This document shows, one piece after another, positions 14,349 to 58,994 of a DNA stretch of 64,000 nucleotides. Under the pieces are notes generated by a model. The model saw nothing but the letters and a program-made list of their open reading frames with translations, made no database searches and was not told the DNA's origin. Location: the sequence record ON568341.1. The stretch is one strand, 5' to 3'. The position numbers and the translations under genes are program-made. This stretch comes from Escherichia phage UE-S1. Numbering within the stretch: position 1 is the stretch's first letter; the number at the start of each line of letters is the position of its first letter.

Positions 14349-14777
14349 ATGAATATCGAACAAACTATCCGTAATCATTCTTTCTTCGCACCAGAAACTG
14401 GTCGTGTTATCGAGAATATCAAAATTGAAGAACTCATGATTAATGTTAAATACAAAGAACTAAATGATGAGATTAGTAGTACCATTTGTGCTCTACGTGC
14501 ACCATTCCGAGACGAAAAAGCCAAAAAACCAGCATATGTTCTTGCAATTGCACTAGGGTGTGTCGTTAAACTGGCAGTTGATGAAAATATTATCAACATC
14601 AAAGTCGCACCAAGTAATGACGAAGATAACATTGATTTGAACTTCGATGGTAATCTTGATGAAGATGTATTTTTCCAACAATCACTTGTTTATGATTTCC
14701 GCACAGTTACACATTCTCATATCAACTTCGTCAATGAAATGGTTGATATTGTGGCGAAATATGAAGAATCACTATAA
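14349..14777 (+). CDS. FQxS-motif paralog family member (142 aa)
   Basis: C-terminal DEDVFFQQSLVYDF. Confidence 0.6.
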   Translation: MNIEQTIRNHSFFAPETGRVIENIKIEELMINVKYKELNDEISSTICALRAPFRDEKAKKPAYVLAIALGCVVKLAVDENIINIKVAPSNDEDNIDLNFDGNLDEDVFFQQSLVYDFRTVTHSHINFVNEMVDIVAKYEESL

Positions 14778-14786
14778 GTAAATATA

Positions 14787-14812
14787 AAAGCCTCCATAAT
14801 GGAGGCTTTTCT
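14787..14812 (+). terminator. rho-independent terminator
   Basis: AAAGCCTCC-ataat-GGAGGCTTTT. Confidence 0.7.
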
Positions 14813-14831
14813 CACATAAGGTAATGATAAT

Positions 14832-15383
14832 ATGATTGAACAAATTAAAATTCTCACAAAGCAAATTACCGATTTTCTTTCAGACAAAGATGGTTTTCAA
14901 ACAGAAGTAAAAATGCACGGTGTTAGTCTTGATGTTATTTCCCCTGATTCTAATGTGACAAATTATGATATGTATGAGTTATTCCTTTACACGTTAGCAG
15001 TACGTAAGTTAGGAAGTGATATTGAACTTAATATTAATACTAATAGCGAAGGAAATAAAATTTTTGCAATCAACACGAGTGCCAAATTTGATATTAATGC
15101 AGAAATTAAAAAAATCAATGAAAGTTTTGTTGGTTTTAAACATGATTCTATTCAAGGTGTTTTTGTAGGAAAACAAACATCCACAAGTCAATACCCATAC
15201 TGCATTATGACTTTATACAAAAATGGAGATTGGATGCGACAAGATTTAGTTTATGCTGAATTGTTGTATGCGTTTACACATGATCTTGTAATTGAATTGG
15301 ATGACAGTGCTTTTTGTTTTAAGAAAATCAGAAAATTAACCAATGATATACAAACACAACTTAAAGAATTAAATGATAAATAA
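14832..15383 (+). CDS. hypothetical protein (183 aa)
   Basis: Track ORF. Confidence 0.55.
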   Translation: MIEQIKILTKQITDFLSDKDGFQTEVKMHGVSLDVISPDSNVTNYDMYELFLYTLAVRKLGSDIELNINTNSEGNKIFAINTSAKFDINAEIKKINESFVGFKHDSIQGVFVGKQTSTSQYPYCIMTLYKNGDWMRQDLVYAELLYAFTHDLVIELDDSAFCFKKIRKLTNDIQTQLKELNDK

Positions 15384-15502
15384 ATATACCAGAAATGGTT
15401 AACATATCATGTTACTTCCTCCCTTACATAATAATGATGCGTTGTTATATTTTTTCATTATATTATTATTTTCTTTTTATATTGTACAAAATTATATTAG
15501 TA

Positions 15503-15528
15503 CTGCCCCGTTCTTCGGGGCATTTTTT
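15503..15528 (+). terminator. rho-independent terminator
   Basis: TGCCCCG-ttctt-CGGGGCA followed by TTTTTT. Confidence 0.7.
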
Positions 15529-15549
15529 ATTATCTAAAATTGAGGATAT

Positions 15550-15945
15550 ATGAAAAATAACATCGGAACTTCAATAATTAACCCACTTTCTTATTACCTT
15601 GAAAAATTTAGAAGTACAAATGGCAAGAAATTTAATAATATATTTCAGTTCTCCCATAAAGAATATATTACTATTGATCATTTCTCTAAGAAACTAATGT
15701 ATGTAAATGATAATAATCATATTATTAAACTATCATTCGATATTGAATTAGACAAATTGACATTTACTGAATACATTAATAAAAAAACTTCATTTTTAAA
15801 CACATATAATAGAAAAGTATATAGGAACATTTCAATGTACCTAAATGACGAATATTACTTTCAACAATCTACAATTGAAGAGGTATTATTCAGCACTGAA
15901 GAATTAAAAGAATTATTTTATTGGCATGAGAAATTTATCTCTTGA
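15550..15945 (+). CDS. FQxS-motif paralog family member (131 aa)
   Basis: C-terminal NDEYYFQQSTIEEV; GAGGA RBS. Confidence 0.6.
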   Translation: MKNNIGTSIINPLSYYLEKFRSTNGKKFNNIFQFSHKEYITIDHFSKKLMYVNDNNHIIKLSFDIELDKLTFTEYINKKTSFLNTYNRKVYRNISMYLNDEYYFQQSTIEEVLFSTEELKELFYWHEKFIS

Positions 15946-15970
15946 CATTGTGATGGTTTTCTTCTAAAAT
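15942..15970 (+). promoter_or_regulatory. sigma70-like promoter (TTGACA-N17-TAAAAT)
   Basis: Hexamers upstream of ORF 15998. Confidence 0.5.
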
Positions 15971-15997
15971 ACAAGATAATATGTTGAGGATTAGTTT

Positions 15998-16408
15998 ATG
16001 AGTTTAGATTTACACAATGAACTAAAATATTTTTTGGATTTGGATATATCAGAATTGAACCAACACATCAATCATATAACTAGTACTGTGTGGTGGTCCA
16101 ATGAGCATGATGACCCAATTATACAACTAAGTGATAAGTCATCAGTTATGCGATTTTATAAGATTAATCATAAAAATAACATCAAGATCACATATATACC
16201 ATATAAAAACATATTACTAGTTGAAACACTTAATCCAAGTTCTTTATTAAAAATCACCGATTTAGATACATTACAAACAAGTGAATCTTTATTCCAACGT
16301 TCATTAGTTGATGATCTTGGTGGTATTACTTTTGAAGATATATTACAATTGAAGAAGATGTATAGTGAATTGTTAGAGATTAAAAACACTTTAGTAATGG
16401 GATATTGA
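15998..16408 (+). CDS. FQxS-motif paralog family member (136 aa)
   Basis: C-terminal SESLFQRSLVDDLGGITFEDI. Confidence 0.6.
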   Translation: MSLDLHNELKYFLDLDISELNQHINHITSTVWWSNEHDDPIIQLSDKSSVMRFYKINHKNNIKITYIPYKNILLVETLNPSSLLKITDLDTLQTSESLFQRSLVDDLGGITFEDILQLKKMYSELLEIKNTLVMGY

Positions 16409-16409
16409 T

Positions 16410-16814
16410 ATGGTAAGTTTATTAGATATTGACAATACCAGTTTAGTGTTGGTGAAAAAAGGTTTAATCCCCAATTCTACAAAAATTGATTATGCTGTTA
16501 TTGAAACAAATATGGGAAATATTTGGTATGATTCCGAAAGGGATATTGTGATTAGCTGCGTAGACAGTGACCGTGCTGAGTGTTGTAGAGTCGGTCATGA
16601 CGGACAATTTGTTTTTGAATTTCGTTATTGGAAGGACGCAAAATTTCACCAAGAACTGGTTGCATTGTCAAACGAACTGTATACAGAAGAAACTTTCTTC
16701 ATGGAAAGTACTATTAATAATGTTGGCTCAGTAACGTATGAGCACTATAAAAAAGTATATACACTATCCAGAGAAGTTATGAAAATTATCAGAACTGCTG
16801 AAGGTAAAGAATAA
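16410..16814 (+). CDS. FQxS-motif paralog family member (134 aa)
   Basis: C-terminal TEETFFMESTINNVGSVT. Confidence 0.6.
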   Translation: MVSLLDIDNTSLVLVKKGLIPNSTKIDYAVIETNMGNIWYDSERDIVISCVDSDRAECCRVGHDGQFVFEFRYWKDAKFHQELVALSNELYTEETFFMESTINNVGSVTYEHYKKVYTLSREVMKIIRTAEGKE

Positions 16815-16815
16815 C

Positions 16816-17187
16816 ATGACTACTATATATGATATTTTGGGTGTTCTGAGTAGAAATATAGATGATGATTTTGTTATTGTTCAAGATACTAGAAATACAT
16901 TTCAACTACCAATAGGTTCACCAGATAGGTTAATTTTTAATAGATACTCAAATGAACTAACTTACATCCATGATGGGATTGCAATTGTATCAGTTTCTAT
17001 AAACGACTATACAATACGATATGTATATGACTTCAACGATTATTGTACAAGAATCCACAGTATTGATATTTCCGAAGAGGAACTATTCCAATTGTCATTG
17101 ATTGAGAAAAATGTAATAGGAATTACAGAAATTGATATTGTTAAAAAAGCATTAGACTATACAAATATAAAAATTAATGGTGAGTGA
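16816..17187 (+). CDS. FQxS-motif paralog family member (123 aa)
   Basis: C-terminal SEEELFQLSLIEKNVIGIT. Confidence 0.6.
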   Translation: MTTIYDILGVLSRNIDDDFVIVQDTRNTFQLPIGSPDRLIFNRYSNELTYIHDGIAIVSVSINDYTIRYVYDFNDYCTRIHSIDISEEELFQLSLIEKNVIGITEIDIVKKALDYTNIKINGE

Positions 17188-17189
17188 GG

Positions 17190-17636
17190 ATGAATGTTGA
17201 CGAAATAAAAAAACATTTTGAAATTGCATTATCTTGTAATTTTGATACCAAAAGTGTAGTATCACCTAAAGAGTATATACATATTAGCAGTTCTTATTCA
17301 CATTCATGTATAGTCCATATTGAAAAGACCTATGACCGTACTGAGTTATCGTTTTACAACCCACTTATTAGAACAACATCAGTTATGTTAATATACAATA
17401 CAATATCTGACATTATTGAAATTATTTCAACTTATACTGATGTGACTTGCACAACTATATATAATGCAAGTACATGCATAACAGAAGAAGGATATTTCCA
17501 GGAGTCACTTATTCAAAATTTTAATTATGATTATAAAGATTTAAGTTATATAGTCTTAAGTTTTGAAAAAATAAATGAAATGGTTTTGTCATTATTTGAC
17601 ATAATCGAACAAAATCCAAAGGTAATCAAATGCTAA
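17190..17636 (+). CDS. FQxS-motif paralog family member (~148 aa)
   Basis: C-terminal TEEGYFQESLIQNF; ATG at 17190 after GAGTGAGG (track start is GTG at 17184). Confidence 0.6.
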   Translation: MNVDEIKKHFEIALSCNFDTKSVVSPKEYIHISSSYSHSCIVHIEKTYDRTELSFYNPLIRTTSVMLIYNTISDIIEIISTYTDVTCTTIYNASTCITEEGYFQESLIQNFNYDYKDLSYIVLSFEKINEMVLSLFDIIEQNPKVIKC

Positions 17637-18070
17637 ATCCAAAAAAGTTTTTTGATTTATTAGGTATTACATCTATACCGGATTTAACAAGTGAAACAAA
17701 CGAATATCGTGATGTTGGAATTGTATCATTGGAATATGATACATTTGACTTTAAATGTTACATAACATATGATGTTGAAACCTATACTAAAAAATCATCA
17801 TACATTTTTGTGTTCATATATAATGATTATAGTGATAATAAACTGAATGATGTTCATATTGACACATTCGAAATATGTGGTAATATTATATCAGATGAAT
17901 CGTCATCTACATTTGATTTGGAGTTAAACAGTACTGAAGAGTCACTTTTTCAGTTGAGTACTATAAGTGACACTATATTAACACCAGATGACATTGAGAA
18001 ATTTAAAGAACATCTTGACGCAGTTCGTGAGATGTTCTATAATCATTATCCAGAAGTGGAGTTCAAATAA
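17630..18070 (+). CDS. FQxS-motif paralog family member (146 aa)
   Basis: C-terminal STEESLFQLSTISDTILT. Confidence 0.6.
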   Translation: MLNPKKFFDLLGITSIPDLTSETNEYRDVGIVSLEYDTFDFKCYITYDVETYTKKSSYIFVFIYNDYSDNKLNDVHIDTFEICGNIISDESSSTFDLELNSTEESLFQLSTISDTILTPDDIEKFKEHLDAVREMFYNHYPEVEFK

Positions 18071-18084
18071 CTAAAGGTAATAAG

Positions 18085-18345: not shown

Positions 18346-18384
18346 GGAAATATATGTCTGAAAAACCAAAAGAACCTTTAGACC

Positions 18385-18727: not shown

Positions 18728-20608
18728 ATGAAACCTATCCGAGTACTATCTCTTTTTAATGGGATGAGTGTAGGATACATGGCATTAAAAGATGCTGGTA
18801 TCCCTGTTGAAAAATATTATTCATCCGAAATTGACAAATTTGCTATAGCTGAATCCCAAGCTAACTTCCCCGATATCATCCAATTGGGTGATGTAACTAG
18901 ATGGAAAGAATGGGATATCGAATGGGACAAGATAGATCTACTGATGGGTGGTTTTCCATGCTTCCCAGCAGGAACTATGATAATGACAAATAAAGGTCAT
19001 AAAGATATAAAAGATATAAAAATTGGTGATATGGTTCTTACACACACTGGACAGTACCAAAAAGTATTGAGTACTGGTGTTAAAAAGGCTCCCACTCGTA
19101 TTATTACAGGTCAAGGTCACCTTCCAATTGAATGTACCGATAATCATCCATTTTGGAGTAGGGAACGTCTAGCCAATAAATGGAATAATCAACGCCGAAG
19201 ATATGATTCTGTGTTTTCTGAACCGCAATGGGTAAATGCTATAGATCTTACTAAACAAAGTTATATTTGTAATGTTAAAAATATTACACATAATACAGTA
19301 AGTGATAAAGATGAAAAATATTGGTATTTTGTTGGTCGTTTTATGGGTGATGGATGTGCTAGTGTATCTAATAACAAATACAGTATTACTATTGTAGATT
19401 CATTAGATAAAGTTGATGAATTGAAAAAATGTTTTGATGATTTTGGATACAAATACACATTAGCTATTAAAGATAATCATGTAAGATGTGATATATATAG
19501 CAAAAAGCTTTATGATGAATTAATATGTATTGGGCATAAATCACAAAACAAATGTTTACCACCTGAAATATTCAATGAAACTATCAATAACAAAGAAGCA
19601 TTTATTAAAGGATACATGGATGCAGATGGTTGTGAGGATAAACACAATAAAAAATACAAATTTACCACCACAAGTTATAAAATAGTTCTTGGTATGCAAC
19701 AGTTAATCTTAGATACTTATCAACGTCATTGTACTATTAGTCAAACTGTTCCAAAAACAAAAAAATATATAAAAAATAAGTTGGTTAATCAGCTTCCGTA
19801 TTGGAATGTTCATTTTAGCTATAATAAAATTAAAAGAGATGATGTAATATATGATGAAATTTATATATGGAATCGTGGTGTAAAAAGTAATGTACCAACC
19901 GGAGAATGGAAAACCGTTTACAATATTGAAGTTGCAGTAGATAACACATATACGGCGAACAATATTGTAGTTCATAACTGCCAAGCGTGGTCAGTTGCAG
20001 GTAAACAGGGTGGAATAAATGATCCTCGTGGTATGTTATTCCATACAATGGTTGATATTTACCAGCACATAAAAAGTCTCAATCCAGACTTGAAAGTACT
20101 GTTCGAGAATGTTAAAATGAAAGAAGATTTCAAGCAATACATTAATAGTGTTCTTGAGATGACACCAGTACTGATAAATTCCCAGCATTATACGCCTCAC
20201 TTCAGGCAGAGATATTACTGGTACAGTACTGATAAACTTTTTATACCACCTGCATTATCAAATGCACCTAAACTTCAAGATATTATTGAAGATGGTTGGT
20301 ACACTGACAGAACCGCTTCGTACTGTATAGATGCTAACTATTTTAAGGGTGGGGATTGTAACCAGTACTTTAATAAATCAAGAAGACAAATTGTTTTCAA
20401 AGAACCTGATATCGATAGGGATTTCCTTCTTGAACATGGTAAGCGAAATGTGGACTATCGTCATTTAACAGTACAAGAGTGTTGCATGTTGCAAGGAATT
20501 GATGTAAACTACTTCAAAGTTAGTAGTTCAACACAAGCATACAAAATGCTTGGGAATGGATGGACTATGCCAGTTATATCACACTTACTACGAGATATAT
20601 TCTTTTGA
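18728..20608 (+). CDS. C5-cytosine DNA methyltransferase, intein-containing precursor (626 aa)
   Basis: Motif I SLFNGMSVG, motif IV GGFP|...|CQAWSVAGKQGG (split by intein), motif VI VLFENVK, QRYYW, C-terminal GNGWTMPV. Confidence 0.8.
   Translation: MKPIRVLSLFNGMSVGYMALKDAGIPVEKYYSSEIDKFAIAESQANFPDIIQLGDVTRWKEWDIEWDKIDLLMGGFPCFPAGTMIMTNKGHKDIKDIKIGDMVLTHTGQYQKVLSTGVKKAPTRIITGQGHLPIECTDNHPFWSRERLANKWNNQRRRYDSVFSEPQWVNAIDLTKQSYICNVKNITHNTVSDKDEKYWYFVGRFMGDGCASVSNNKYSITIVDSLDKVDELKKCFDDFGYKYTLAIKDNHVRCDIYSKKLYDELICIGHKSQNKCLPPEIFNETINNKEAFIKGYMDADGCEDKHNKKYKFTTTSYKIVLGMQQLILDTYQRHCTISQTVPKTKKYIKNKLVNQLPYWNVHFSYNKIKRDDVIYDEIYIWNRGVKSNVPTGEWKTVYNIEVAVDNTYTANNIVVHNCQAWSVAGKQGGINDPRGMLFHTMVDIYQHIKSLNPDLKVLFENVKMKEDFKQYINSVLEMTPVLINSQHYTPHFRQRYYWYSTDKLFIPPALSNAPKLQDIIEDGWYTDRTASYCIDANYFKGGDCNQYFNKSRRQIVFKEPDIDRDFLLEHGKRNVDYRHLTVQECCMLQGIDVNYFKVSSSTQAYKMLGNGWTMPVISHLLRDIFF
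18959..19978 (+). mobile_element. intein with LAGLIDADG homing-endonuclease domain (340 aa)
   Basis: Begins CFPAGTMIMT, block B CTDNHPF, LAGLIDADG motifs FVGRFMGDG and IKGYMDADG, ends VYNIEVAVDNTYTANNIVVHN, +1 Cys; excision restores GGFPCQAWS. Confidence 0.8.
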
Positions 20609-21096: not shown

Positions 21097-21120
21097 ATCC
21101 ACGCAATGCGTGGATTTTTC
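21097..21120 (+). terminator. rho-independent terminator
   Basis: ATCCACGC-aat-GCGTGGAT followed by TTTTC. Confidence 0.7.
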
Positions 21121-21132
21121 ATAGGTGTATAT

Positions 21133-21648
21133 ATGTCAATTCCTTATGTTAAAATTATTAACAATATTCTTGATTCTTGGGAAGATGTCATTATTGGTAA
21201 AAAGAAGCCTTTACCCGTTCATGCACTATCTGGAAAACTTCAATTCAGAATGTCAAATAAAACTGAAACGTTTAATAATCATGATATTTGTATTACACTA
21301 AAAACACCTGATTGTATTGTAATTAAAAAAAATAAAGATGATGAATTGACATTATCTATTGGTCGTGATAAAATCATTTTAAATAATTTGTCTGAAGAAG
21401 AATTTTTTCAAATAAGTACTATTATCGACATGAAAGATTTTACATATGAATCGTTGATAGAACTCAATACACGTTTTATCGATATACAGGAACGATTGCG
21501 ACCCATTCTTCGTATCGAAGAAGAAGCTTGGATTGAAAGTATGAATAAGATGCAAGAAATGTTGAAAGAAACTATTAACAATATGGGTCAATCTATTTTG
21601 GACATTGGTAAAACTTTTAAACTCAACTTTTCAAAGGAACGTAAATGA
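21133..21648 (+). CDS. FQxS-motif paralog family member (~171 aa)
   Basis: SEEEFFQISTIIDMKDFT; ATG 21133 after AGGTG (track start lies inside the terminator). Confidence 0.6.
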   Translation: MSIPYVKIINNILDSWEDVIIGKKKPLPVHALSGKLQFRMSNKTETFNNHDICITLKTPDCIVIKKNKDDELTLSIGRDKIILNNLSEEEFFQISTIIDMKDFTYESLIELNTRFIDIQERLRPILRIEEEAWIESMNKMQEMLKETINNMGQSILDIGKTFKLNFSKERK

Positions 21649-22097
21649 AAATCGATGAACTGATTTATATTTTAGGTAACTTGCATAAAATATTGTTACA
21701 TCGCAACGAGATGAATAAACTAGGATATAATATCTCTAATGTAAATGAAGCAACATTTAAATATAACTCAATCACTGGTGGAAATTATAATATTGTGTAT
21801 TGCTATGAAACGGACCCAGACTGTTACCAACTTACGTTATACTTTTCTCCAACAAACCCAGCCTTTGTTCACGACATATCATCAATATCACTTGACCCAG
21901 ATGGAGAAATGAGTATAGAATATAACTATGATTCTAAAAAAGAATGTTATGTTGAAGATATGAAAAATATGTTTAACGATGAATATGTGTTCCAGCTAAG
22001 TACTGTACATGATGTTGGCAGTACTAATGGACAATTTTGGAATACATGTTATTATCATATGATTGAAATTTGTAAATTACTAAAAGGCGATGATTAA
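21645..22097 (+). CDS. FQxS-motif paralog family member (150 aa)
   Basis: C-terminal NDEYVFQLSTVHDVGST. Confidence 0.6.
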   Translation: MKIDELIYILGNLHKILLHRNEMNKLGYNISNVNEATFKYNSITGGNYNIVYCYETDPDCYQLTLYFSPTNPAFVHDISSISLDPDGEMSIEYNYDSKKECYVEDMKNMFNDEYVFQLSTVHDVGSTNGQFWNTCYYHMIEICKLLKGDD

Positions 22098-22480
22098 TGA
22101 AATACAGCATTGAAGTACATTACACTACAGGTGACACTGAAACAGAAGATTCAGTTACCAATACATTGGATGTTCAATGGGAATCAAAGGATGAGGCAGT
22201 TGTAGCATTACAGTCTTTGAAAGAGCATTGGGTATTCTTTAAGAAACTCGATGATGCATATAGTAACGAACGTGCGACCATAATCGATGAAGCCAAACAT
22301 AAAGAATGGTTTGATCCAATGTCATGTGAATTCTCTTTCTTTGTAAAAAATGGAGATGAAAAAATTCCAGTACATACACCGTGGAACGGCTACTTTGAAA
22401 CTCTTCATAATGCACGAGTTATCGCTGTGGATAATCCTGAACAAATCGATTTCGATTCATTGGACTGGAAAAAACTATGA
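22097..22480 (+). CDS. hypothetical protein (127 aa)
   Basis: Track ORF. Confidence 0.5.
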   Translation: MKYSIEVHYTTGDTETEDSVTNTLDVQWESKDEAVVALQSLKEHWVFFKKLDDAYSNERATIIDEAKHKEWFDPMSCEFSFFVKNGDEKIPVHTPWNGYFETLHNARVIAVDNPEQIDFDSLDWKKL

Positions 22481-22920
22481 CAGTACTGCACCAATTGAAG
22501 AAGGTTAAGCATCCAGTTGTATATGAGGACTGGAAACGTCAGAAGCTGATGGGTGACTTTTATTACCCAAAATCTAAAGTACTGGCAACGTCAAAAGCTA
22601 TATACTTGAAATATAAGGATGAAGATTGTTTGTGTATTCAAATGGGATTCCATCCTAAAGTTGGTTTGTTTACATCAAATCAAACATTTTATAAATTTAG
22701 AATTCAAAAAGATACATTTAGTATTCATATCGAAAAGCATGATGTACAAGATACAATTTATCGTGTGGAAAGTGAGCCTTTGAATCTTGTTGAGATTCCG
22801 TACAATAATTTAGAAGAAATGTACTTTCAGCAGTTGACAATACAAGAAGACTTTGGTATGATAGGACTTCAAGAGTTAGAGATGATTAAACAAATTCGTG
22901 ATGTCTACTTTAAGGAGTAA
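22477..22920 (+). CDS. FQxS-motif paralog family member, divergent (147 aa)
   Basis: C-terminal NLEEMYFQQLTIQEDFGMIGL. Confidence 0.55.
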   Translation: MTVLHQLKKVKHPVVYEDWKRQKLMGDFYYPKSKVLATSKAIYLKYKDEDCLCIQMGFHPKVGLFTSNQTFYKFRIQKDTFSIHIEKHDVQDTIYRVESEPLNLVEIPYNNLEEMYFQQLTIQEDFGMIGLQELEMIKQIRDVYFKE

Positions 22921-27738: not shown

Positions 27739-28308
27739 ATGAACTTTATTAAATTCAACACATCTGAGTCAGAAGCATACTTTAATACAAATAATAAATT
27801 TAATATTATTCTTAAAGACGGAACGGTTGTTATCGGAGTATCATTGCTTTCATTTGATGGCGAAAAACTCAATACTGTTTATAAATTCACCAATCTTGAT
27901 GGTGATTACTGGGATACATCAGATGTATCTAAAATTTGCACACATTATGTATTTGAATCTATTGAAGTTGGTGATGGCTGGGCATTGACCTGTAATGGTA
28001 ATAAAGTATTTTCTGGTAACATATTTGGGGTAATTTCCAGTAAAGAAATCGTAGACCATCATCTTCATGTTCTCAATAATAACGCCAACACTTATACACC
28101 TGATAATATCAAAATTCACGATATTGTAACATATACTGATTATAATGGTTTCAGACATAAAGCAATCGTAACTGAAGTTAAAAAACCAAAAAATTATTTC
28201 GACCACGGTTTAATTGAAGTATATATGGTAGGTGGCGAAAAACAATACTTTGATCATTTCACTTATACTGGTTGGGATAGATTCCTAACCGTTATTGAGG
28301 AATACTAA
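27739..28308 (+). CDS. hypothetical protein (189 aa)
   Basis: AGGAGAA RBS upstream. Confidence 0.55.
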   Translation: MNFIKFNTSESEAYFNTNNKFNIILKDGTVVIGVSLLSFDGEKLNTVYKFTNLDGDYWDTSDVSKICTHYVFESIEVGDGWALTCNGNKVFSGNIFGVISSKEIVDHHLHVLNNNANTYTPDNIKIHDIVTYTDYNGFRHKAIVTEVKKPKNYFDHGLIEVYMVGGEKQYFDHFTYTGWDRFLTVIEEY

Positions 28309-28309
28309 C

Positions 28310-28798
28310 ATGCCGATTCGTGGTGTACCAGAACCATTAATGGAAGTTATTAAGCATGTTCGCATTGGAGATCGAGAAGTTAATCTTCGCCGTAATAACA
28401 TTTATTACTTTAAAACTTCAGAAATGAGTTCTGTACAGATTGTCATTGGTACATCTATTAAGATTACTCGTGTACTTGATGGTAGTACTGACTTCGTTGA
28501 ATATAATGTACTTACTAATAAAGTAACGCATATATATAAATGGAGTGGGTATAAAACTATTAAGTATGAATTTGACTTAGCTAGAACTGAAGAAGAACGA
28601 TTTATGCTGAGTACTATCAATCCAGCAAACTATCCCGATCTTGATGCATTTTTGCTAATTTTAAAATTGTATAATGAAGCAAATCAGAAAGCTAAAGAGT
28701 ATGATAGAATCATGTATGAACGCCGAAAAGAACGTGCACAAAAAAGTTATGATCTGTATGATAGCCCATACGTGAAATATACTAAGGGGTCGAAATGA
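28310..28798 (+). CDS. FQxS-motif paralog family member, divergent (~162 aa)
   Basis: TEEERFMLSTINPANYPDL; ATG 28310. Confidence 0.55.
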   Translation: MPIRGVPEPLMEVIKHVRIGDREVNLRRNNIYYFKTSEMSSVQIVIGTSIKITRVLDGSTDFVEYNVLTNKVTHIYKWSGYKTIKYEFDLARTEEERFMLSTINPANYPDLDAFLLILKLYNEANQKAKEYDRIMYERRKERAQKSYDLYDSPYVKYTKGSK

Positions 28799-29199
28799 AT
28801 AAAGAAGTTCAAATTATCATAACTCCACCTATACAAAGTCTGGATGTATCCATTAGTGATTTTTTGGAAAAATACTATGAATGGTTTAATGAAGATTCAG
28901 TAATTTATAACCATTCATTACCTGATGGTTTCGTTGAGCTTATTGAATTAAATGCCAAATCACTATACTTCTGTGTTGAATACAATGATTATATGACAGA
29001 TGAAGCATATCGTTTTCGTTGTACATTGTATCCTAACCATTTTTCCATTGGTTATAAAGACTATCAGTACTGCACCACTAACTACAGTGTAGAGGAAGAA
29101 TTTCAGTACAATTTACTTTATCCAGATTTAGATTATACTATTGCAGTACTGTTATCTAAAATTATGGATTTTTATAAAGGTAAATACAGTGCAGCCTAA
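28795..29199 (+). CDS. FQxS-motif paralog family member, divergent (134 aa)
   Basis: SVEEEFQYNLLYPDLDYT. Confidence 0.5.
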   Translation: MNKEVQIIITPPIQSLDVSISDFLEKYYEWFNEDSVIYNHSLPDGFVELIELNAKSLYFCVEYNDYMTDEAYRFRCTLYPNHFSIGYKDYQYCTTNYSVEEEFQYNLLYPDLDYTIAVLLSKIMDFYKGKYSAA

Positions 29200-30675: not shown

Positions 30676-31431
<756 letters not shown>

Positions 31432-32151: not shown

Positions 32152-33849
<1,698 letters not shown>

Positions 33850-36864: not shown

Positions 36865-37290
36865 ATGAAATACAACATCGTTGAAATGGTGAACTATGTA
36901 TTAAAAAACAACGCATGGTCACTGCATGATGTACAATTAGAAGATATTGGTGAAGTTAGAGTATTTTGCTATGATCCAGAGTTGAATCAAACCACAGATT
37001 TGAGTAAATGTTTTAATATTTTTCTTGGTTATGAATTCAATAATCATTTTTATTCATTTGATGTGTATTTTGAAAAAGTTATATTCAGAAGTTATGAATG
37101 TGATAATGAAGATTATGATTATGATGACGAATCAATTGAATTGAATGTTAACGACATTGATACTGAAGAAAAATTCTTCCAGTACTGCCTCGTTAACAAC
37201 ACATTAGGATTGTCATTTAAGGACATTGAATCTATACTTAAAGTTCAAAAGTTGATTCCAGAAGAGGTACTAAATCCATTAAATGACTAG
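36865..37290 (+). CDS. FQxS-motif paralog family member (141 aa)
   Basis: DTEEKFFQYCLVNNTLGLSFKDIESIL. Confidence 0.6.
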   Translation: MKYNIVEMVNYVLKNNAWSLHDVQLEDIGEVRVFCYDPELNQTTDLSKCFNIFLGYEFNNHFYSFDVYFEKVIFRSYECDNEDYDYDDESIELNVNDIDTEEKFFQYCLVNNTLGLSFKDIESILKVQKLIPEEVLNPLND

Positions 37291-37648
37291 TCTAATAGTA
37301 CGTATAATGCAAGATGTTTGTAATAACCTTTATACAGGTAATTTTGACGATCCGAACATAAAAATATTATGTTATGATGGTTTTACAATGGTACATCCAG
37401 CCTATTCAAATAATATCTACGTAGCATATACAGGTGAAAATCTATTGTATCAATTTGATATATATAGTACAATGACAAAGATAATTTTGGATGCATCTAA
37501 ACCAGCAATTATTATTGCTTCTCATGATTATCATTACACTGAAGAATCACTATTTCAGTACTCAATGATTAATGACATTGGTGGGTTGACATTGGATGAG
37601 GTTAATGCTATACTAGCTGTCTCACGTTTGGTTAAAACTCACAATTAG
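37283..37648 (+). CDS. FQxS-motif paralog family member (121 aa)
   Basis: TEESLFQYSMINDIGGLTLDEVNAIL. Confidence 0.6.
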   Translation: MTSLIVRIMQDVCNNLYTGNFDDPNIKILCYDGFTMVHPAYSNNIYVAYTGENLLYQFDIYSTMTKIILDASKPAIIIASHDYHYTEESLFQYSMINDIGGLTLDEVNAILAVSRLVKTHN

Positions 37649-37657
37649 GAGATTCAT

Positions 37658-37849
37658 ATGTTCTGGAATTTATTATGCTTGTTTGGTCGCACATTAGTTC
37701 TTGCAATTATTCATACACCTGGCATTCGTAATTATGTTTCTTATGAATTTAAGAAAGATTATCACAACGGTACTGAAGCACGTGCTACTAAAATGTGCAA
37801 AGACTTCAATGTATCAGTACCACCATTTAAGAAATACGAGGATGAATAA
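37658..37849 (+). CDS. hypothetical small protein (63 aa)
   Basis: GGAG RBS. Confidence 0.4.
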   Translation: MFWNLLCLFGRTLVLAIIHTPGIRNYVSYEFKKDYHNGTEARATKMCKDFNVSVPPFKKYEDE

Positions 37850-38133
37850 TGGAATTCATTGTTGCCCCTGATGATATTAAAACATTTACGTTCAGAGATA
37901 ATAATAATTATCCTTATACAAATCATTCATTGAATTCATTACATGTTATTTCAATCATTGCATCTGAATACAGAGAAAATCCCTGTATTGATTTTAAAAC
38001 CACTGATGGTGAATATACATGGGTAATCCCAAAAGATAAATATAGTTATCAAGGGGCAGTAGAAATTCGCGACTTGATTCTAAAACAAATCGAAGATGGA
38101 AATACTCATCCTAAACTAAACACTCAGTACTGA
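37849..38133 (+). CDS. hypothetical protein (94 aa)
   Basis: Track ORF. Confidence 0.45.
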   Translation: MEFIVAPDDIKTFTFRDNNNYPYTNHSLNSLHVISIIASEYRENPCIDFKTTDGEYTWVIPKDKYSYQGAVEIRDLILKQIEDGNTHPKLNTQY

Positions 38134-38156
38134 AAATGTTCCCTCTGATAGCTTTT

Positions 38157-38170
38157 AATCAGTACTGATT
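38157..38170. repeat. 14-bp perfect palindrome AATCAGTACTGATT
   Basis: Intergenic, CAGTACTG core. Confidence 0.65.
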
Positions 38171-38319
38171 TTCTCCTTATGTGTAGAAGCTATCACCATT
38201 ACAATGATATTATTATCAATTCATTATATTCTTTACCCTCCTAACAGTATCTAGATAAATTTATATTAGATACTGTGATTTTAGAAGTTGCATTTTAACT
38301 TCTTTCCTGTTATACTTAA

Positions 38320-38350
38320 GGCTGATTCATGTTCGAATCGGCCTTTTTTC
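38320..38350 (+). terminator. rho-independent terminator
   Basis: GGCTGATTC-atgttc-GAATCGGCC followed by TTTTTT. Confidence 0.65.
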
Positions 38351-38367
38351 TTATATAGGTGAATACA

Positions 38368-38784
38368 ATGAATGATTTGTTTACTTTGATCGATAAGTAT
38401 GTTGACATTGTATACCATCAAGTTGGTAGTGATACGTTTGAAACAAAAAACCCAATTAGAGATGGCAATTTTGATGTTGTCGTTGGTTCATTTTTGAATG
38501 GATACACCGAGACATTATACAATAGTAATAATATTTTTATTTCAGTTCAATCCAGACATACATCAGACTATTCTGTTAGCATTGATATTTGGGAAAATAA
38601 TATAGAAATAGATATAACGGAATCTACTAATATTTGTGTTGATGATTCATTTAATCAATTAACTGAGGAAATGTACTTGCAGTTGAATTTTGTACATGAT
38701 CTTACAAATATCAGTTATAAAACATTAAGGAAAATATGTTTTCTTAGTGGGGTGATACGTAGTAATATGAATAAGGATGATTAG
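38368..38784 (+). CDS. FQxS-motif paralog family member, divergent (~138 aa)
   Basis: LTEEMYLQLNFVHDLTNISYKTL; ATG 38368 after AGGTGA. Confidence 0.55.
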   Translation: MNDLFTLIDKYVDIVYHQVGSDTFETKNPIRDGNFDVVVGSFLNGYTETLYNSNNIFISVQSRHTSDYSVSIDIWENNIEIDITESTNICVDDSFNQLTEEMYLQLNFVHDLTNISYKTLRKICFLSGVIRSNMNKDD

Positions 38785-39205
38785 AGAAATGATAAAAATT
38801 CCACCTGATTCACTAACACATCTTATTGAATGTGGTGTAAAATTTTGCGAAGGAGATATCTCATCTTATACATCAGTTGATGAACCTTATAAATTTTTAT
38901 ATCAATCTTATAAAAATAATTCTAAAGTTTCTTGTAGAGAGGCTGACAACATATTAATTGATGTTTCGTTACATAATGTACCTAAATTTTATATTGATAT
39001 CTTTGGTGATTCTTTAACAATTCGAACATATGATTATTTTATTAATAAAGATCTCTTGAATCTTTCAATCGATCATGATACTATAGATTCAGAACTTTTC
39101 TTTCAACTATCAACGGTTTCTGATTTACAGGGTTTAACTGTTGAACAGTTGAATGGTCTGTTTGAGATTTCAAGAAACATACGAAGTAGGAACACAAATG
39201 TCTAA
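38777..39205 (+). CDS. FQxS-motif paralog family member (142 aa)
   Basis: DSELFFQLSTVSDLQGLTVEQLNGL. Confidence 0.6.
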   Translation: MIREMIKIPPDSLTHLIECGVKFCEGDISSYTSVDEPYKFLYQSYKNNSKVSCREADNILIDVSLHNVPKFYIDIFGDSLTIRTYDYFINKDLLNLSIDHDTIDSELFFQLSTVSDLQGLTVEQLNGLFEISRNIRSRNTNV

Positions 39206-39614
39206 TATTTTAAATGAAAAAACAGTTGATGTTGTCATTGATGTACTTGAGAACAGTAATACATTTGAGAAAAAATACAGAACAGTATACTTTGGTGAAT
39301 ATTGTTGGCTAAATTATACTTCAGAAAATTTATTTATAATTCGTGTTGAAACGGATGATATTGGATTAACTATACATAATGCACTTAATAAAAGTGGTAA
39401 GAAAATAACTATTATTTTGGATAAATCAAGTACATCTTCTTTCTGTGATAGAATTGATGATTGTGAACACTTCACGTCAACATTTTATGATACCGAAGAA
39501 GAACATTTTATGGCTAGTACTGTTAAAGAATTACCTATTCCATTCAAATTGATGAAAGCGACAAGGGATTTTATCTTAAAATATAAAAAATCAGGAGTTT
39601 ATAATGACATTTAA
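39198..39614 (+). CDS. FQxS-motif paralog family member, divergent (~138 aa)
   Basis: TEEEHFMASTVKELPIP; ATG 39198. Confidence 0.55.
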   Translation: MSNILNEKTVDVVIDVLENSNTFEKKYRTVYFGEYCWLNYTSENLFIIRVETDDIGLTIHNALNKSGKKITIILDKSSTSSFCDRIDDCEHFTSTFYDTEEEHFMASTVKELPIPFKLMKATRDFILKYKKSGVYNDI

Positions 39615-53111: not shown

Positions 53112-53309
53112 ATGTTTACTTTATATCTTGCAGTGGTTCTTACTAATGGTGACATAACTCGAACTATTGGTGAAGGTGTATATAAAACTCCTGAGCAATG
53201 TTACTCTGCTACACATTGGCCTCGTGATAGTGATGATACTCGTACCGAATTTAAATGCATGAAAGTAAAAGGTGATTTTGTTAACCTTAAAGTTATCGAG
53301 GCTAAATGA
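53112..53309 (+). CDS. hypothetical protein (65 aa)
   Basis: Track ORF. Confidence 0.4.
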   Translation: MFTLYLAVVLTNGDITRTIGEGVYKTPEQCYSATHWPRDSDDTRTEFKCMKVKGDFVNLKVIEAK

Positions 53310-53827
53310 TGAATATTAATGAGTTGTTAATATTATTGTTTAATCGTGAACGCCGCGATACAAGACCAATTGAATATCAAGATGTGATACGTATTGAAAC
53401 GGATTTCTGTTATGGTAAAACAACTCATGATCTTTTGAATCCATCTGGAAAACGCTATGCTGATGTTTGTTTTTCTGAAAGAAGTGATGGTTCAGAAATA
53501 ACAAGTACTGAAATTGTGTTTTATGATAGATCCTCGGCAGGTTCGTATGAAATAGAACTTATATATTGTCCTTGTTCAGAAACACACAATAAACATCAGA
53601 TATTATATGATGTTTATTCACCCCCAGGTATTGCTGAATATTTTGTTATTGATTACAGTACTGAAGAAAGTGTGTTTCAACAGAGCTTGATTCATAACTT
53701 CCAGTTGAATGATCCATTAGTACCGAAGATTTTCAAACTACTTGACACAATCGATGTTGATTTTGAATTTGTTATGTGCATTAGAACTTCTTTATTCAAT
53801 GAATTCATGGAACTTTTTAATATATGA
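53306..53827 (+). CDS. FQxS-motif paralog family member (173 aa)
   Basis: STEESVFQQSLIHNFQLND. Confidence 0.6.
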   Translation: MMNINELLILLFNRERRDTRPIEYQDVIRIETDFCYGKTTHDLLNPSGKRYADVCFSERSDGSEITSTEIVFYDRSSAGSYEIELIYCPCSETHNKHQILYDVYSPPGIAEYFVIDYSTEESVFQQSLIHNFQLNDPLVPKIFKLLDTIDVDFEFVMCIRTSLFNEFMELFNI

Positions 53828-55398: not shown

Positions 55399-55415
55399 TC
55401 TTAGTGCTGTATAAT
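55388..55415 (+). promoter_or_regulatory. sigma70-like promoter (TTGACA-N16-TATAAT)
   Basis: Consensus hexamers with TG at -15. Confidence 0.6.
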
Positions 55416-55457
55416 AATTCTTGAAATGTAAAAAACTTAAACATGAGGGTATAAAAT

Positions 55458-55778
55458 ATGTTATCAGTATTGTTTTCAATTCCATCTTTAATTCTAATTT
55501 GGATTATTGTGTATGAATGTTTTATTGTAGATGATACGGAGAAAAAAGAATTCAATGAGTTATTCATGCTTGATACGCCAGTTGTCCGCATTTTCTATTC
55601 TGTAGTTATCGTTTCAGTACTTGCATGGATTGTAAGTTTTATCTTCCCAATGGGTGCAATCATTAATGTATTGAATTTGGTTGAAAACACTATTGCTATT
55701 CTATGGCTTATCAAAGCGTGGTATGTAGGAAATGTTAATATTTGGATTGATATTGTTAAATCTAAATTTACAAAATAA
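55458..55778 (+). CDS. membrane protein (106 aa)
   Basis: Hydrophobic segments; GAGGG RBS. Confidence 0.45.
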   Translation: MLSVLFSIPSLILIWIIVYECFIVDDTEKKEFNELFMLDTPVVRIFYSVVIVSVLAWIVSFIFPMGAIINVLNLVENTIAILWLIKAWYVGNVNIWIDIVKSKFTK

Positions 55779-55870
55779 GATGTAATAAGTAATAGTGAAA
55801 CAACCTAGATATGATTAAATACTTCTGTACATACATATAGTACAGAAGTATTTCTTAGTAGAGGTTTGTT

Positions 55871-56230
55871 ATGAATACTTATATAAAATTAATAGCACTT
55901 ACTTGCTTGTTATTGTCTTTTTTTAGTTACGGTTCGTCATCTGAAACACAATGTCGTAGTACTAATGGAACGATGTATTCATTAACTAACGATCCGGGAA
56001 ATGGTAAAAATATTGTTATTGATGGTGAAACTTATCGTTTTAAAGTACAAAGCACTATTGGTAATAAAAAGATAACGACTTATATTAATGATTCTGGAAC
56101 ACTTGCAAATGTTATATTAATTGTTAATCCAAAAACAGGTCGTGGTGATATCTATATAGTAATTTATTTAGATTCAGCACAACAACGAGAATTAGATATA
56201 GATGAATTAAATCTTCATTGCAAAATATAG
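55871..56230 (+). CDS. secreted protein with signal peptide (119 aa); paralog of 56615
   Basis: Signal peptide; shared IDG(E/Q)xYxF core. Confidence 0.5.
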   Translation: MNTYIKLIALTCLLLSFFSYGSSSETQCRSTNGTMYSLTNDPGNGKNIVIDGETYRFKVQSTIGNKKITTYINDSGTLANVILIVNPKTGRGDIYIVIYLDSAQQRELDIDELNLHCKI

Positions 56231-56240
56231 GGTATAAAAT

Positions 56241-56618
56241 ATGATAGATTCTATTGTAATTGGGTTGATAAGTATTCCATTTATTTTGTCTTTTATAATT
56301 TCCATATGCATGATTGTGTATTTTATATTTGCTGGAATGTATTTTGTTTTAACAAACAAGTATATTTTTATTTCTAAGCTTGATTCAATATTTGCATGTG
56401 AAACTTTAGCTTACAACTTATGGATAATCTGCTCTAGTATTATGGGGTTGACTTACCTTTTATATAAATTTGATTTTATTAATGTAAATATTGTATATAT
56501 TAGTGCTGGATTAGCATTATATCCTGCTACATGGTACTTGATTTATGTTGTGGACATATGGTATAGTACTTACAAAGAATACCAGTGTAAGAAATCATTA
56601 AAAGTTGAGAGGAATTGA
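56241..56618 (+). CDS. polytopic membrane protein (125 aa)
   Basis: Hydrophobic segments. Confidence 0.5.
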   Translation: MIDSIVIGLISIPFILSFIISICMIVYFIFAGMYFVLTNKYIFISKLDSIFACETLAYNLWIICSSIMGLTYLLYKFDFINVNIVYISAGLALYPATWYLIYVVDIWYSTYKEYQCKKSLKVERN

Positions 56619-56971
56619 TTATGAAAATTATTTTATTTTTTGTATCTATGTTATTGAGTGGATTTGTATATGCTGAACCACTTGAAGGTTTAGTTTGCAC
56701 AGACGGACACATCAAACATATCTATCAAGGTGATAGTTATGATCATGATATTGTTTATATTGATGGTCAACAATATAACTTTGTTAAAGAGCATACTATT
56801 GGCGACATTAGCTTCAATGAGTTTTCAAATGATGAAGATCCTAACGCCTTGGCATTTATGGAAGTTGATTTGTATGAAGATAGTAATGGTACACAATATG
56901 CTAAACTTGTTATGATGCGTCGTGGTGCTAAAGAAACAAGTTTCGGTGGTTTATGTAAATATAAGGATTAA
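56615..56971 (+). CDS. secreted protein with signal peptide (118 aa); paralog of 55871
   Basis: MIMKIILFFVSMLLSGFVYA|EP. Confidence 0.5.
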   Translation: MIMKIILFFVSMLLSGFVYAEPLEGLVCTDGHIKHIYQGDSYDHDIVYIDGQQYNFVKEHTIGDISFNEFSNDEDPNALAFMEVDLYEDSNGTQYAKLVMMRRGAKETSFGGLCKYKD

Positions 56972-56976
56972 TTATT

Positions 56977-57168
56977 ATGCTGATTTATAAATGTGATAAT
57001 ATTCGTGTTCTACAACATCCTTATCTTCAAATCTTTGATGTGCAGATGTTCATGGAAGGTGATAATCCGAGAACCTATGGACGTAAGTATGATTATTTCA
57101 CGGTCAAGCAGTGCAACAACATTGATGAAGTACGACGATTAGTACATGAACTCCAAAACAAAGGTTGA
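56977..57168 (+). CDS. hypothetical protein (63 aa)
   Basis: Track ORF. Confidence 0.4.
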   Translation: MLIYKCDNIRVLQHPYLQIFDVQMFMEGDNPRTYGRKYDYFTVKQCNNIDEVRRLVHELQNKG

Positions 57169-57187
57169 CTTCGGTCAGCCTTTTTTG
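57161..57187 (+). terminator. terminator GGTTGAC-ttcg-GTCAGCC (copy 1) with embedded promoter hexamers
   Basis: Hairpin then TTTTTTG; TTGACT in the 5' arm lies 17 nt upstream of TTATAAT. Confidence 0.75.
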
Positions 57188-57222
57188 TTATAATTATTTT
57201 ATATTCTAATGGATTTTAAATT

Positions 57223-57663
57223 ATGTTAGTATATCGTTTTGAACTTAAATTTAGTTACATTGAACCTGATTTGAAACCAGCAACAAATGTTGGTCCATTT
57301 GCACGGTATTCTTCAAAATACAGTACTAAAAATGGTTTTGACCGTTTGTATATGTCTACGCCTACGCAGTTCCAACCTGAACCAACTGATGATGGAATCT
57401 ATTCAATCAAATATGGATGGGCATTTGGCTGTCAAAGTTTGAATGATTTGTTTCGGTTCTTTACTATGGACTTGGGTAAATTACATCGTGCTGGGTTTGC
57501 TATTTCCGTATATGATGTACCTGATAATCATGTGGATATTGGTCGTAATCAGGTTCAGTACTATTGCGGTAGTGCAACATTGGTTCGTATCATGTCAGTT
57601 AAGGATGCAAAGGTGGAGTACAGTCAAAGTAAAAGAGTAATACATGAGGCTATATATGGATAA
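57223..57663 (+). CDS. hypothetical protein (146 aa)
   Basis: Track ORF. Confidence 0.5.
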   Translation: MLVYRFELKFSYIEPDLKPATNVGPFARYSSKYSTKNGFDRLYMSTPTQFQPEPTDDGIYSIKYGWAFGCQSLNDLFRFFTMDLGKLHRAGFAISVYDVPDNHVDIGRNQVQYYCGSATLVRIMSVKDAKVEYSQSKRVIHEAIYG

Positions 57664-58000
57664 GACACAAATAGAATTGAAAAAATTTGTATCATTCTAT
57701 CTACCAAATGATCCACGTACTTCACAAAAAGATTTTGAATATTATAATATTCTAAGTAAACAGTTAATGAGAAAGTTTCAACAGTGTTTAAGTATATTCA
57801 ATACCGATGGTAGACGTAGATACCGAATCATTTCAATGAATGATGAAAACGCAAACTACTTTGATTATGATGTTGTTTTTAGAGCATATAATGATGACCG
57901 AATTAAATTAAATTATGATCAAATAATATTTGATCTAAGTGCTATATCTGTTATAATCACGCATATCGCCGAGATTAATGGTTTTAAAGAGTGGTATTGA
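57656..58000 (+). CDS. hypothetical protein (~114 aa)
   Basis: ATG 57656. Confidence 0.45.
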   Translation: MDKTQIELKKFVSFYLPNDPRTSQKDFEYYNILSKQLMRKFQQCLSIFNTDGRRRYRIISMNDENANYFDYDVVFRAYNDDRIKLNYDQIIFDLSAISVIITHIAEINGFKEWY

Positions 58001-58014
58001 TTAGAGGACAACAT

Positions 58015-58281
58015 ATGAAGCTTAAATTGCAATATAACGGATTTACTTTACGTAATGATACTGAGTTTGTAAATCGTTCACCTGGTGCTGAACTTTTTTT
58101 GCGAGAGATGAACATTCCTTTCATTGTCACCACTGTTGGGGATCGTGAAGTTTTACAATACGCAGAGCATCCTATTATTGATGTTCCTTGGTATTCTGAA
58201 CATATGTACATGGATATGGCACGTCGCTACAACTGTAAGTTCATAGTAGAAGGTGATAAAATTACAGTACAATTTAAATGA
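58015..58281 (+). CDS. hypothetical protein (~88 aa)
   Basis: ATG 58015 after AGAGGA. Confidence 0.45.
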   Translation: MKLKLQYNGFTLRNDTEFVNRSPGAELFLREMNIPFIVTTVGDREVLQYAEHPIIDVPWYSEHMYMDMARRYNCKFIVEGDKITVQFK

Positions 58282-58349
58282 TGTGAATTGAAATGAACAG
58301 TACTACACTCAATTTAAGCATCATCGCAAATGTAGAAATATAATATAAA

Positions 58350-58380
58350 AAGGGAAATCATATATGGTTCCCCCTTTTTC
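58350..58380 (+). terminator. rho-independent terminator (weak)
   Basis: GGGAA...TTCCCCC followed by TTTTTC. Confidence 0.4.
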
Positions 58381-58421
58381 TTATTACGTACAATTAAGTA
58401 CATATATTAATTGAGGAAATT

Positions 58422-58994
58422 ATGAATCGTAAAGGCCGTTTTAAGGTATCAAAGAAGAATAAGAGTTCTAGGTTTAAACCTATAGTGTTAACAGTTAAAG
58501 CTAAAGAAGAATTAACTGCACTTAGTAAAAAGATCATTTCATCTAAGATCAAAATATCATATATAAATTCAGTAAAATATCAAAATGTAAAACCACGAGA
58601 TCAACTTATTTCACTTATATTTGAACGTAATGATTTTGAGATATCAGTAGATGATTATAGAGCCTATAATGCTGGCTTCATTAATGTTACTTGTAATAAA
58701 GAACTAACTGCATTAGAAAATTTGTCATGTATAATAAATCTAGATAAAGGTGTTGTGAAATACCATTTTGTACATTTCACTAATATCAATAATGGAATGG
58801 GCGTAGAATCCAGACCTATAGTGCCTACGTGTGATGTTACTAAATTAGCAAAACTCAATGATGAAGAATATTTTCAAGAAAGCATTGTAACTGAGCATTT
58901 AGATGATATAATAGCAACTTACAAAGAATGCATATGGGTTTTGAATGCCATTAAGCCTAAATTGTGTTTAATGAATATTGTTCGTGATTTATGA
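58422..58994 (+). CDS. FQxS-motif paralog family member (190 aa)
   Basis: NDEEYFQESIVTEHLDD; GAGGA RBS. Confidence 0.6.
   Translation: MNRKGRFKVSKKNKSSRFKPIVLTVKAKEELTALSKKIISSKIKISYINSVKYQNVKPRDQLISLIFERNDFEISVDDYRAYNAGFINVTCNKELTALENLSCIINLDKGVVKYHFVHFTNINNGMGVESRPIVPTCDVTKLAKLNDEEYFQESIVTEHLDDIIATYKECIWVLNAIKPKLCLMNIVRDL

Follow-up and report, generated by a model that had tools for sequence, protein, structure and literature searches.

The 64,000-nucleotide stretch of the Escherichia phage UE-S1 genome analysed here (record ON568341.1; hereafter, the window) encodes 19 paralogous proteins, and probably a twentieth, that share the diagnostic motif TEE-x-[YF]-FQ-x-S-[TL]-[IV]. We find that these proteins belong to a lineage-specific expansion of tandem paralogs that is confined to RaK2-like phages and is much larger than the window shows. 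The related phage PBECO4 carries 60 members, so an earlier note on the window, which described about 20 open reading frames (ORFs), understated the size of the family. With moderate confidence, we favour an ancient, lineage-specific expansion of one domain of about 120–190 amino acids (aa) whose products are early, non-virion, host-directed binding proteins. The domain family is undescribed; the phenomenon, paralog expansion in giant viruses, is known.

The motif aligns across members well beyond chance. The strict pattern [FYLVIM]FQ.S[TLMVIA][IVL] occurs in frame in 13 ORFs on the plus strand of the window and in none on the minus strand; in residue-shuffled ORFs the count averages 0.048 and never exceeds 2. 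A hidden Markov model (HMM) that was seeded on the C-terminal module and then iterated on the full-length proteins converges on 19 window ORFs, all on the plus strand, with expectation (E) values of 1e-19 to 2e-31, and no other window ORF falls below an E value of 0.05. The identical 19 ORFs were recovered by single-sequence hhalign against an enlarged family profile. The ORFs interspersed at 14832, 20560, 22097, 37849, 39604 and 40087 yielded no extra members when compared by hhalign with a family alignment of 98 sequences. Seven members lie in 14349–18070, three in 21106–22920 and five in 36865–39614, and there is one each at 28295, 31071, 53306 and 58422, exactly where the earlier note had placed them. 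Two of its other descriptive claims also held: the stop and start codons of neighbouring members overlap or abut in the ORF list, and the 19 genes occupy 8,409 bases, or 13.1% of the window, against a claimed seventh. The twentieth ORF that it counted, 28795–29199 (plus strand, 134 aa), is marginal, with an HMM E value of 0.14 and an hhalign probability of 3.5% over 19 motif columns. Its degenerate motif, SVEEEFQYNLLYPDLDYT, is one residue short; the location of the motif and the length of the protein are typical of the family, and this ORF is probably a degenerate member.

All 19 members are on the plus strand; motifs and HMM E values are given in brackets. The seven-gene array consists of 14349–14777 (142 aa, DEDVFFQQSLV, 9.7e-20), 15550–15945 (131 aa, NDEYYFQQSTI, 1.6e-26), 15998–16408 (136 aa, TSESLFQRSLV, 8.5e-28), 16410–16814 (134 aa, TEETFFMESTI, 5.3e-23), 16816–17187 (123 aa, SEEELFQLSLI, 5e-22), 17184–17636 (150 aa from a GTG start, TEEGYFQESLI, 8.8e-24) and 17630–18070 (146 aa, TEESLFQLSTI, 3.2e-27). 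The three-gene array opens with 21106–21648 (SEEEFFQISTI, 5.2e-25), which has a long C-terminal extension and for which the true start is likely to be 21133, giving 171 aa; its PBECO4 ortholog, gp414, is 516 bp in length. It continues with 21645–22097 (150 aa, NDEYVFQLSTV, 1.9e-31) and 22477–22920 (147 aa, LEEMYFQQLTI, 4.9e-27). The member at 28295–28798 (TEEERFMLSTI, 9.8e-23) likely starts at 28310, giving 162 aa, which is also the length of the representative P0012; the next, 31071–31424 (TEEEYFQMSTV, 9e-24), has 117 aa. The five-gene array contains 36865–37290 (141 aa, TEEKFFQYCLV, 2.1e-30) and 37283–37648 (121 aa, TEESLFQYSMI, 6.4e-30), the N-terminal parts of which (hereafter, heads) are detectably similar, followed by 38359–38784 (141 aa from a GTG start, TEEMYLQLNFV, 6.5e-24), 38777–39205 (142 aa, DSELFFQLSTV, 5.7e-22) and 39153–39614 (153 aa, TEEEHFMASTV, 1.5e-30). 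The last two members are 53306–53827 (173 aa, TEESVFQQSLI, 1.4e-26) and 58422–58994 (190 aa, NDEEYFQESIV, 2.3e-30); the latter has a basic N-terminal extension of about 40 aa, and hhalign places its residues 62–174 on profile positions 23–127.

The codons of the conserved Phe, Gln and Ser residues vary synonymously, with Ser drawn from both the TCN and the AGY families. It is therefore the protein sequence that is under selection, and a DNA-level repeat or regulatory element beneath the motif is ruled out on the same grounds. Spurious ORFs are ruled out by a ratio of non-synonymous to synonymous substitution rates (dN/dS) of about 0.2, together with the presence of orthologs in phage RaK2.

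The window has a G+C content of 31–36% and nearly all of its genes are on the plus strand. Its segment 14000–24000 matches 36 phage records, the best of which is Escherichia phage ph0011 (98% covered, 88.4% identity); PBECO4, phAPEC6, SP27 and UB match this segment at about 90% identity. Identity of the window to the PBECO4-type Escherichia coli jumbo phages (ph0011, PBECO4 and phAPEC6) is about 88–91%, and the closest relatives are 350-kb myoviruses of the genus Asteriusvirus, within the RaK2-like group. We assembled the PBECO4 genome from its annotated stretches and searched its six-frame ORFs with the family profile. At E < 1e-3, 42 members were found with the non-iterated profile and 60 with the iterated profile; reversed or shuffled PBECO4 ORFs gave 0 matches at E < 1e-2. 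The 60 members lie on a single strand and account for 27,987 bases (8.0% of the genome) and 60 of the 551 annotated genes (about 11%). Nineteen are counterparts of the window set and are located at 184.8–226.6 kb, 36 form a second tandem array at 99–125.5 kb (gp159–gp213) and five more lie singly. The second array carries the motif as EE-x-x-FQ-x-S, with Phe and Gln invariant, and the window set and second array match each other in hhalign with a probability of 96.5% and an E value of 7e-10.

RaK2, of the genus Alcyoneusvirus, encodes at least 48 members in the 148 kb scanned, including counterparts of the second PBECO4 array at about 245–276 kb. An uncultured 50-kb metagenome contig has 12 members within 20.5 kb, and distant representatives sit on metagenome contigs of up to 361 kb. 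Searching with the motif consensus (tblastn) returned 70 phage records, all of them RaK2-like and 310–386 kb in length, except for one 86-kb Klebsiella record. The hosts of these phages are Escherichia, Klebsiella, Salmonella, Erwinia, Yersinia, Pectobacterium, Cronobacter, Serratia and, in one case, Xanthomonas.

The earlier note did not recognise the family, and searches of Pfam, NCBIfam, PADLOC and PDB sequences likewise assigned no characterised domain to any window member (NCBIfam 0 of 19, PADLOC 0 of 19). For each of ten members scanned against PHROGs, the best match was a different family of unknown function, with weak cross-matches between these families, and structural matches in BFVD were to uncharacterised proteins of the same phage group only. 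A profile of the 19 members, compared with 1.84 billion representative proteins, gave 94 matches at E ≤ 1e-3. Almost all of these proteins are 115–175 aa in length, with the motif near residue 100, and the matches mostly cover profile positions of about 20–140. One metagenomic member of the 98-sequence alignment, which is not a window protein, matches Pfam RecQ-1-like_HTH (E = 3.7e-12); this carrier is absent among ten representatives that were scanned and may represent a fusion or a sequence wrongly assigned to the family.

Conservation in the 98-sequence alignment is concentrated in the motif: T (69%), E (91%), E (94%), [YF], F (98%), Q (83%, otherwise M), S (92%), [TL], [VI] and D (68%), followed by [LIF]-T-[YLF]-E-[DE]. 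Upstream, the only recurring features are an alternation of hydrophobic residues and a single aromatic column (F or Y in 82%). The AlphaFold2 (AF2) model of 15998–16408, computed from this alignment, is a compact single domain with a predicted local distance difference test (pLDDT) score of 93.4 and a predicted template modelling (pTM) score of 0.85. It has a helix at residues 5–13, seven strands at 21–87, a helix at 95–104 (SESLFQRSLV, the motif) and a helix at 112–134, a topology of αA-β1..β7-αB-αC, that is, α-β7-α2 with a seven-stranded antiparallel sheet. The motif is thus modelled as helix αB, the short x-D-x-G loop that follows it and the capped N-terminus of helix αC ([LI]-T-x-E-[DE]), and the heads as the N-terminal helix and β-meander of the same domain, diverged almost past sequence recognition. 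For one protein of the second PBECO4 array, an AF2 model (pLDDT 83.8) repeats this succession of elements: after a long N-terminal helix come strands, the motif helix (113–120) and another helix (125–139), followed by an added strand and helix.

The heads were also compared on their own, using a leave-one-out profile. Roughly 10 of the 19 score higher than 198 or more of 200 shuffled versions of themselves (the head of 15550–15945 outscores all 200, and that of 38359–38784 has a z score of 5.7) and 6 are not above chance; the heads are therefore related but extremely diverged. The earlier note is borne out in describing a genuine paralog family, hitherto uncharacterised, in which one segment is strongly conserved and the rest has diverged widely. 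Its further statement that the N-terminal parts look unrelated is only half right: it fits the six heads at chance and fails for the roughly ten that are detectably related, and the AF2 model shows one domain. Its proposal of a separable docking module on unrelated effector domains does not agree with the AF2 model, in which the motif packs with the head in a single α-β7-α2 domain.

A form of docking close to this proposal is possible but unlikely, in which the conserved αB/αC face binds one shared hub and each paralog brings a different target. The hub might be a host machine or a phage set of Clp, Lon and HslV type with a ClpS-like adaptor, in the manner of the poxvirus ANK/PRANC families. 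Such a partner would account for polar residues that are nearly invariant (E 91%, E 94%, Q 83%, S 92% and D 68%) among paralogs that are less than 20% identical, and for the invariant F and Q of the 36 second-array proteins. The variable positions of αB fall at i, i+4 and i+8, which suggests one exposed stripe; these are the only variable helix positions, so by helical-wheel reasoning most of the circumference is constrained. Candidate partners exist: Pfam identifies two ClpP-like proteins and one ClpS-like adaptor in PBECO4, whose annotation also lists an HslV-family peptidase and an ATP-dependent protease of 762 aa. However, the motif is an integral, packed helix in the model and not a free peptide or separate domain. 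Furthermore, T-E-E and T-x-E-[DE] resemble the N-capping boxes of helices beside buried aromatic and aliphatic residues, and such boxes together with buried F, [YF], [TL] and [IV] would account for much of the motif without any partner.

The motif could also be read as a processing site. The tobacco etch virus (TEV) site has the consensus E-x-x-Y-x-Q↓(S/G), and the family motif matches this potyviral NIa site in the positions of E (P6), the aromatic residue (P3), F (P2) and Q (P1), as if it were cut by a Gln-specific protease. We regard this as hardly credible: Tyr occupies P3 in only 36% of members and M replaces Q in 16%, the segment is helical and packed in both AF2 models, and the protease-like genes checked encode ClpP-like, ClpS-like and T4-type S77 prohead serine protease proteins and no 3C-like enzyme.

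The modelled order of elements is that of the eukaryotic protein p32 (also gC1qBP, HABP1 or Mam33; PF02330; PDB 1P32, 3QV0, 3JV1 and 1YQF), which folds as one N-terminal helix, seven consecutive antiparallel strands and two C-terminal helices (PMC5828189). The phage proteins resemble p32 further in being mostly acidic, with a median isoelectric point (pI) of 4.7. They differ from it in being about 70 residues shorter, in lacking the long acidic loops and in having no sequence or profile similarity, and p32 is a single-copy eukaryotic gene whereas the phage family has 60 copies. On the strength of the shared element order and low pI, the proteins might be distant relatives or analogues of p32/MAM33 that form acidic oligomers and, much as nucleic-acid mimics do, act on basic host proteins that bind nucleic acids, either as chaperones or as decoys. 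We judge this rather unlikely. None of the 20 window ORFs or the 98 alignment members matches PF02330 at E values of up to 10, and five members have basic heads. A p32 profile of 121 vertebrate sequences reached an hhalign probability of 0.2% against the 98-sequence alignment, which is a weak test given the low effective number of sequences (Neff 1.4) of that profile, and the same low-diversity profile (Neff 1.4) reached 0.07% against alignment A3. We therefore treat a p32-like fold as a structural lead and do not place the family in MAM33.

Comparison with RaK2 dates the expansion. Reciprocal best hits in RaK2 were found for 11 of the 19 window members, 10 of them collinear; they include 14349–14777, 16410–16814, 17184–17636, 21645–22097, 22477–22920, 28295–28798, 39153–39614 and 58422–58994. 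The RaK2 orthologs far outscore paralogs within the window (for 14349–14777, 128.7 bits with RaK2 162304–162795 versus 10.0 bits). The duplications therefore predate the split between the genera, and each copy has been kept; the 8 members without a clear RaK2 ortholog point to some turnover. Relative to the orthologs in PBECO4 and phAPEC6, dN/dS is 0.24 for the heads, 0.21 for the tails and 0.145 for neighbouring genes. Purifying selection thus acts throughout, in a somewhat relaxed form. The suggestion that the heads diversify while the module is conserved finds no support in these similar values, as no current diversification of the heads is seen.

The surroundings of the genes point to early expression. 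Scanning for sigma-70-type sites with at least 11 of 12 consensus positions identified 34 sites on the plus strand of the window and 2 on the minus strand, compared with 3.5 ± 1.8 in dinucleotide shuffles; 11 of the 34 are perfect TTGACA-N16-18-TATAAT sequences. Examples on the plus strand are at 8290, 23391, 25251, 25798, 36452, 42925, 44772, 46134, 51081, 51429 and 55388. In the whole PBECO4 genome there are 105 such sites on the gene strand versus 12, concentrated at 120–150 and 170–240 kb. By analogy with the early regions of T4-like phages that are transcribed by the host polymerase, this density of sites suggests that the family is expressed early.

The products do not appear to be carried in virions. 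None of the phAPEC6 orthologs checked (gp039c, gp054c, gp083c–088c, gp103c, gp120c, gp121c and gp127c–130c) is in the list of 62 phAPEC6 virion proteins determined by mass spectrometry, in which the products of four neighbouring genes (gp035c, gp037c, gp077 and gp078c) do appear. No member is labelled as a virion protein in the annotations of PBECO4 or RaK2. These observations bear on a further alternative, that the proteins are packaged and ejected internal proteins, such as the T4 internal proteins or those of the phiKZ inner body, with the motif as a capsid-targeting or processing signal. The inner bodies of phiKZ are built from paralog families, and some genes next to the family encode virion proteins. 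A capsid inner body is also present in phAPEC6 (PMC7247149). Nevertheless, with no ortholog in the virion list, no structural annotation for members in PBECO4 or RaK2, a motif that is internal and helical in the AF2 model instead of a terminal signal, and genes that sit among sigma-70-type promoters, packaging is very improbable. A nuclear-import signal was also considered and dropped, as the PBECO4-type phages belong to the RaK2-like genus Asteriusvirus and not to the Chimalliviridae; the Sharanji paper refers to nucleus-like compartmentalisation being absent.

We thus return to early, non-virion, host-directed binding proteins as the favoured reading. Host RNA polymerase would transcribe the family genes early, and their products would be soluble and mostly acidic binding proteins at work inside infected cells. 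Each paralog may have been kept for its own target, the whole forming a host-takeover or counter-defence repertoire. Specificity would come from the divergent surface of the sheet, with the conserved helices keeping the scaffold folded; these helices may in addition provide a shared surface for oligomerisation or partner contact, as αA, αB and αC do in the p32 trimer. The speculation of an anti-defence or host-takeover array in the earlier note is compatible with the sigma-70-type promoters and the absence from virions; its docking-module wording is not supported.

Several observations weigh against this interpretation. Homology searches link the family to no function, and the host-directed role rests on genomic position, promoters and absence from virions. 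The promoter matches are consensus scans and not transcript data, and few sigma-70 sites are found within the second PBECO4 array (100–120 kb). Ancient, collinear paralogs under purifying selection are not the usual signature of fast-evolving arms-race genes. The acidic decoy idea cannot fit all members, given that 5 of the 19 have basic heads. The unity of the domain is also open to challenge: the window set and the second array align over 19 motif columns only, their BFVD match lists do not overlap, 6 of the 19 heads show no sequence signal in the leave-one-out test, and one window member was modelled, so some members may have a different head fold.

A more elaborate scheme, which we consider improbable, would make the approximately 60 paralogs a combinatorial adaptor system. 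The αB and αC helices would form a shared interface, within a hetero-oligomer or towards one hub, and each sheet would capture a different host protein; the phage Clp/Lon/HslV-type proteolytic machinery with its ClpS-like adaptor is the candidate hub. If true, this would give phages an equivalent of the F-box and PRANC families that serve eukaryotes and poxviruses as substrate receptors. To our knowledge, no such system has been described in any phage.

Other features of the window and its relatives are distinct from the family. On the plus strand, 18728–20608 encodes a C5 cytosine DNA methyltransferase of 626 aa that is split by an intein with a LAGLIDADG homing endonuclease (Pfam DNA_methylase, Hint_2, Intein_splicing and LAGLIDADG_3); the PBECO4 ortholog is only 861 bp in length and is therefore intein-free. 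A 565-aa ORF at 32152–33849 lies on the minus strand inside the early region. PHROG families of tail fibres and hydrolases match its product (E = 1e-44 to 4e-73), for which a Pfam scan gave no match, and PBECO4 has no gene as large between the flanking orthologs gp384 and gp385; the ORF may be an acquired tailspike or depolymerase-like gene. All-against-all phmmer identified three other small paralog pairs, unrelated to the main family, at 55871–56230 and 56615–56971, at 59566–59949 and 59961–61289 (with phAPEC6 orthologs gp037c and gp035c, which are virion proteins), and at 62347–62685 and 62689–63036. In RaK2, tRNA genes are interspersed at 178.3–195.6 kb, in the region that is syntenic with the window, and PBECO4 has ten tandem RCC1-like genes at 157.8–170.1 kb.

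RaK2-like jumbo phages (PBECO4, 121Q, phAPEC6, RaK2, K64-1, GAP32 and CBB) have been isolated repeatedly and proposed as therapy for E. coli and Klebsiella infections, and no function has been assigned to more than 80% of their genes. With about 1 gene in 9 belonging to one domain family that is recognisable by a simple motif and has a confident fold model, dozens of 'hypothetical protein' families merge into one testable problem. The expansion would rank among the largest of a single domain reported in a phage, and the survival of sixty old paralogs, each conserved individually, implies that as many functions have been retained. If the paralogs have host targets, they constitute a ready-made catalogue of phage–host interfaces; should the conserved helix prove to be a shared interface, it could serve as a single handle by which to pull down or disable the whole set.

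Known systems offer partial parallels. The ANK/PRANC families of poxviruses carry a conserved C-terminal, F-box-like docking element on variable binding parts. The family described here is similar in having many paralogs per genome, a conserved C-terminal segment, a divergent remainder and a presumed interaction with the host; the comparison is an analogy only, as the conserved segment lies inside the same globular domain in the AF2 model. T7 Ocr and T4 Arn, which are made early in infection, are small and acidic and counteract DNA-binding or defence proteins of the host. Family members are likewise small and acidic, are encoded among putatively early genes and are not found in virions. They differ from Ocr and Arn in that no sequence or fold match was found, some members are basic, and those proteins are encoded by single genes and not by 60-member families. 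The searchable literature on PBECO4, RaK2, 121Q and Asteriusvirus contains no account of the family that we could find. The RaK2 genome paper reports that nearly 10% of RaK2 proteins are paralogues, without a family definition, motif or structure. A comparable case is the zinc ribbon expansion of phage G, at roughly 35 copies, which a comparative study called unprecedented (PMC7824862). As in phage G, one small domain is arranged in tandem arrays within a single jumbo-phage lineage; here the domain is a different one, with no zinc ribbon, and is present in about 60 copies.

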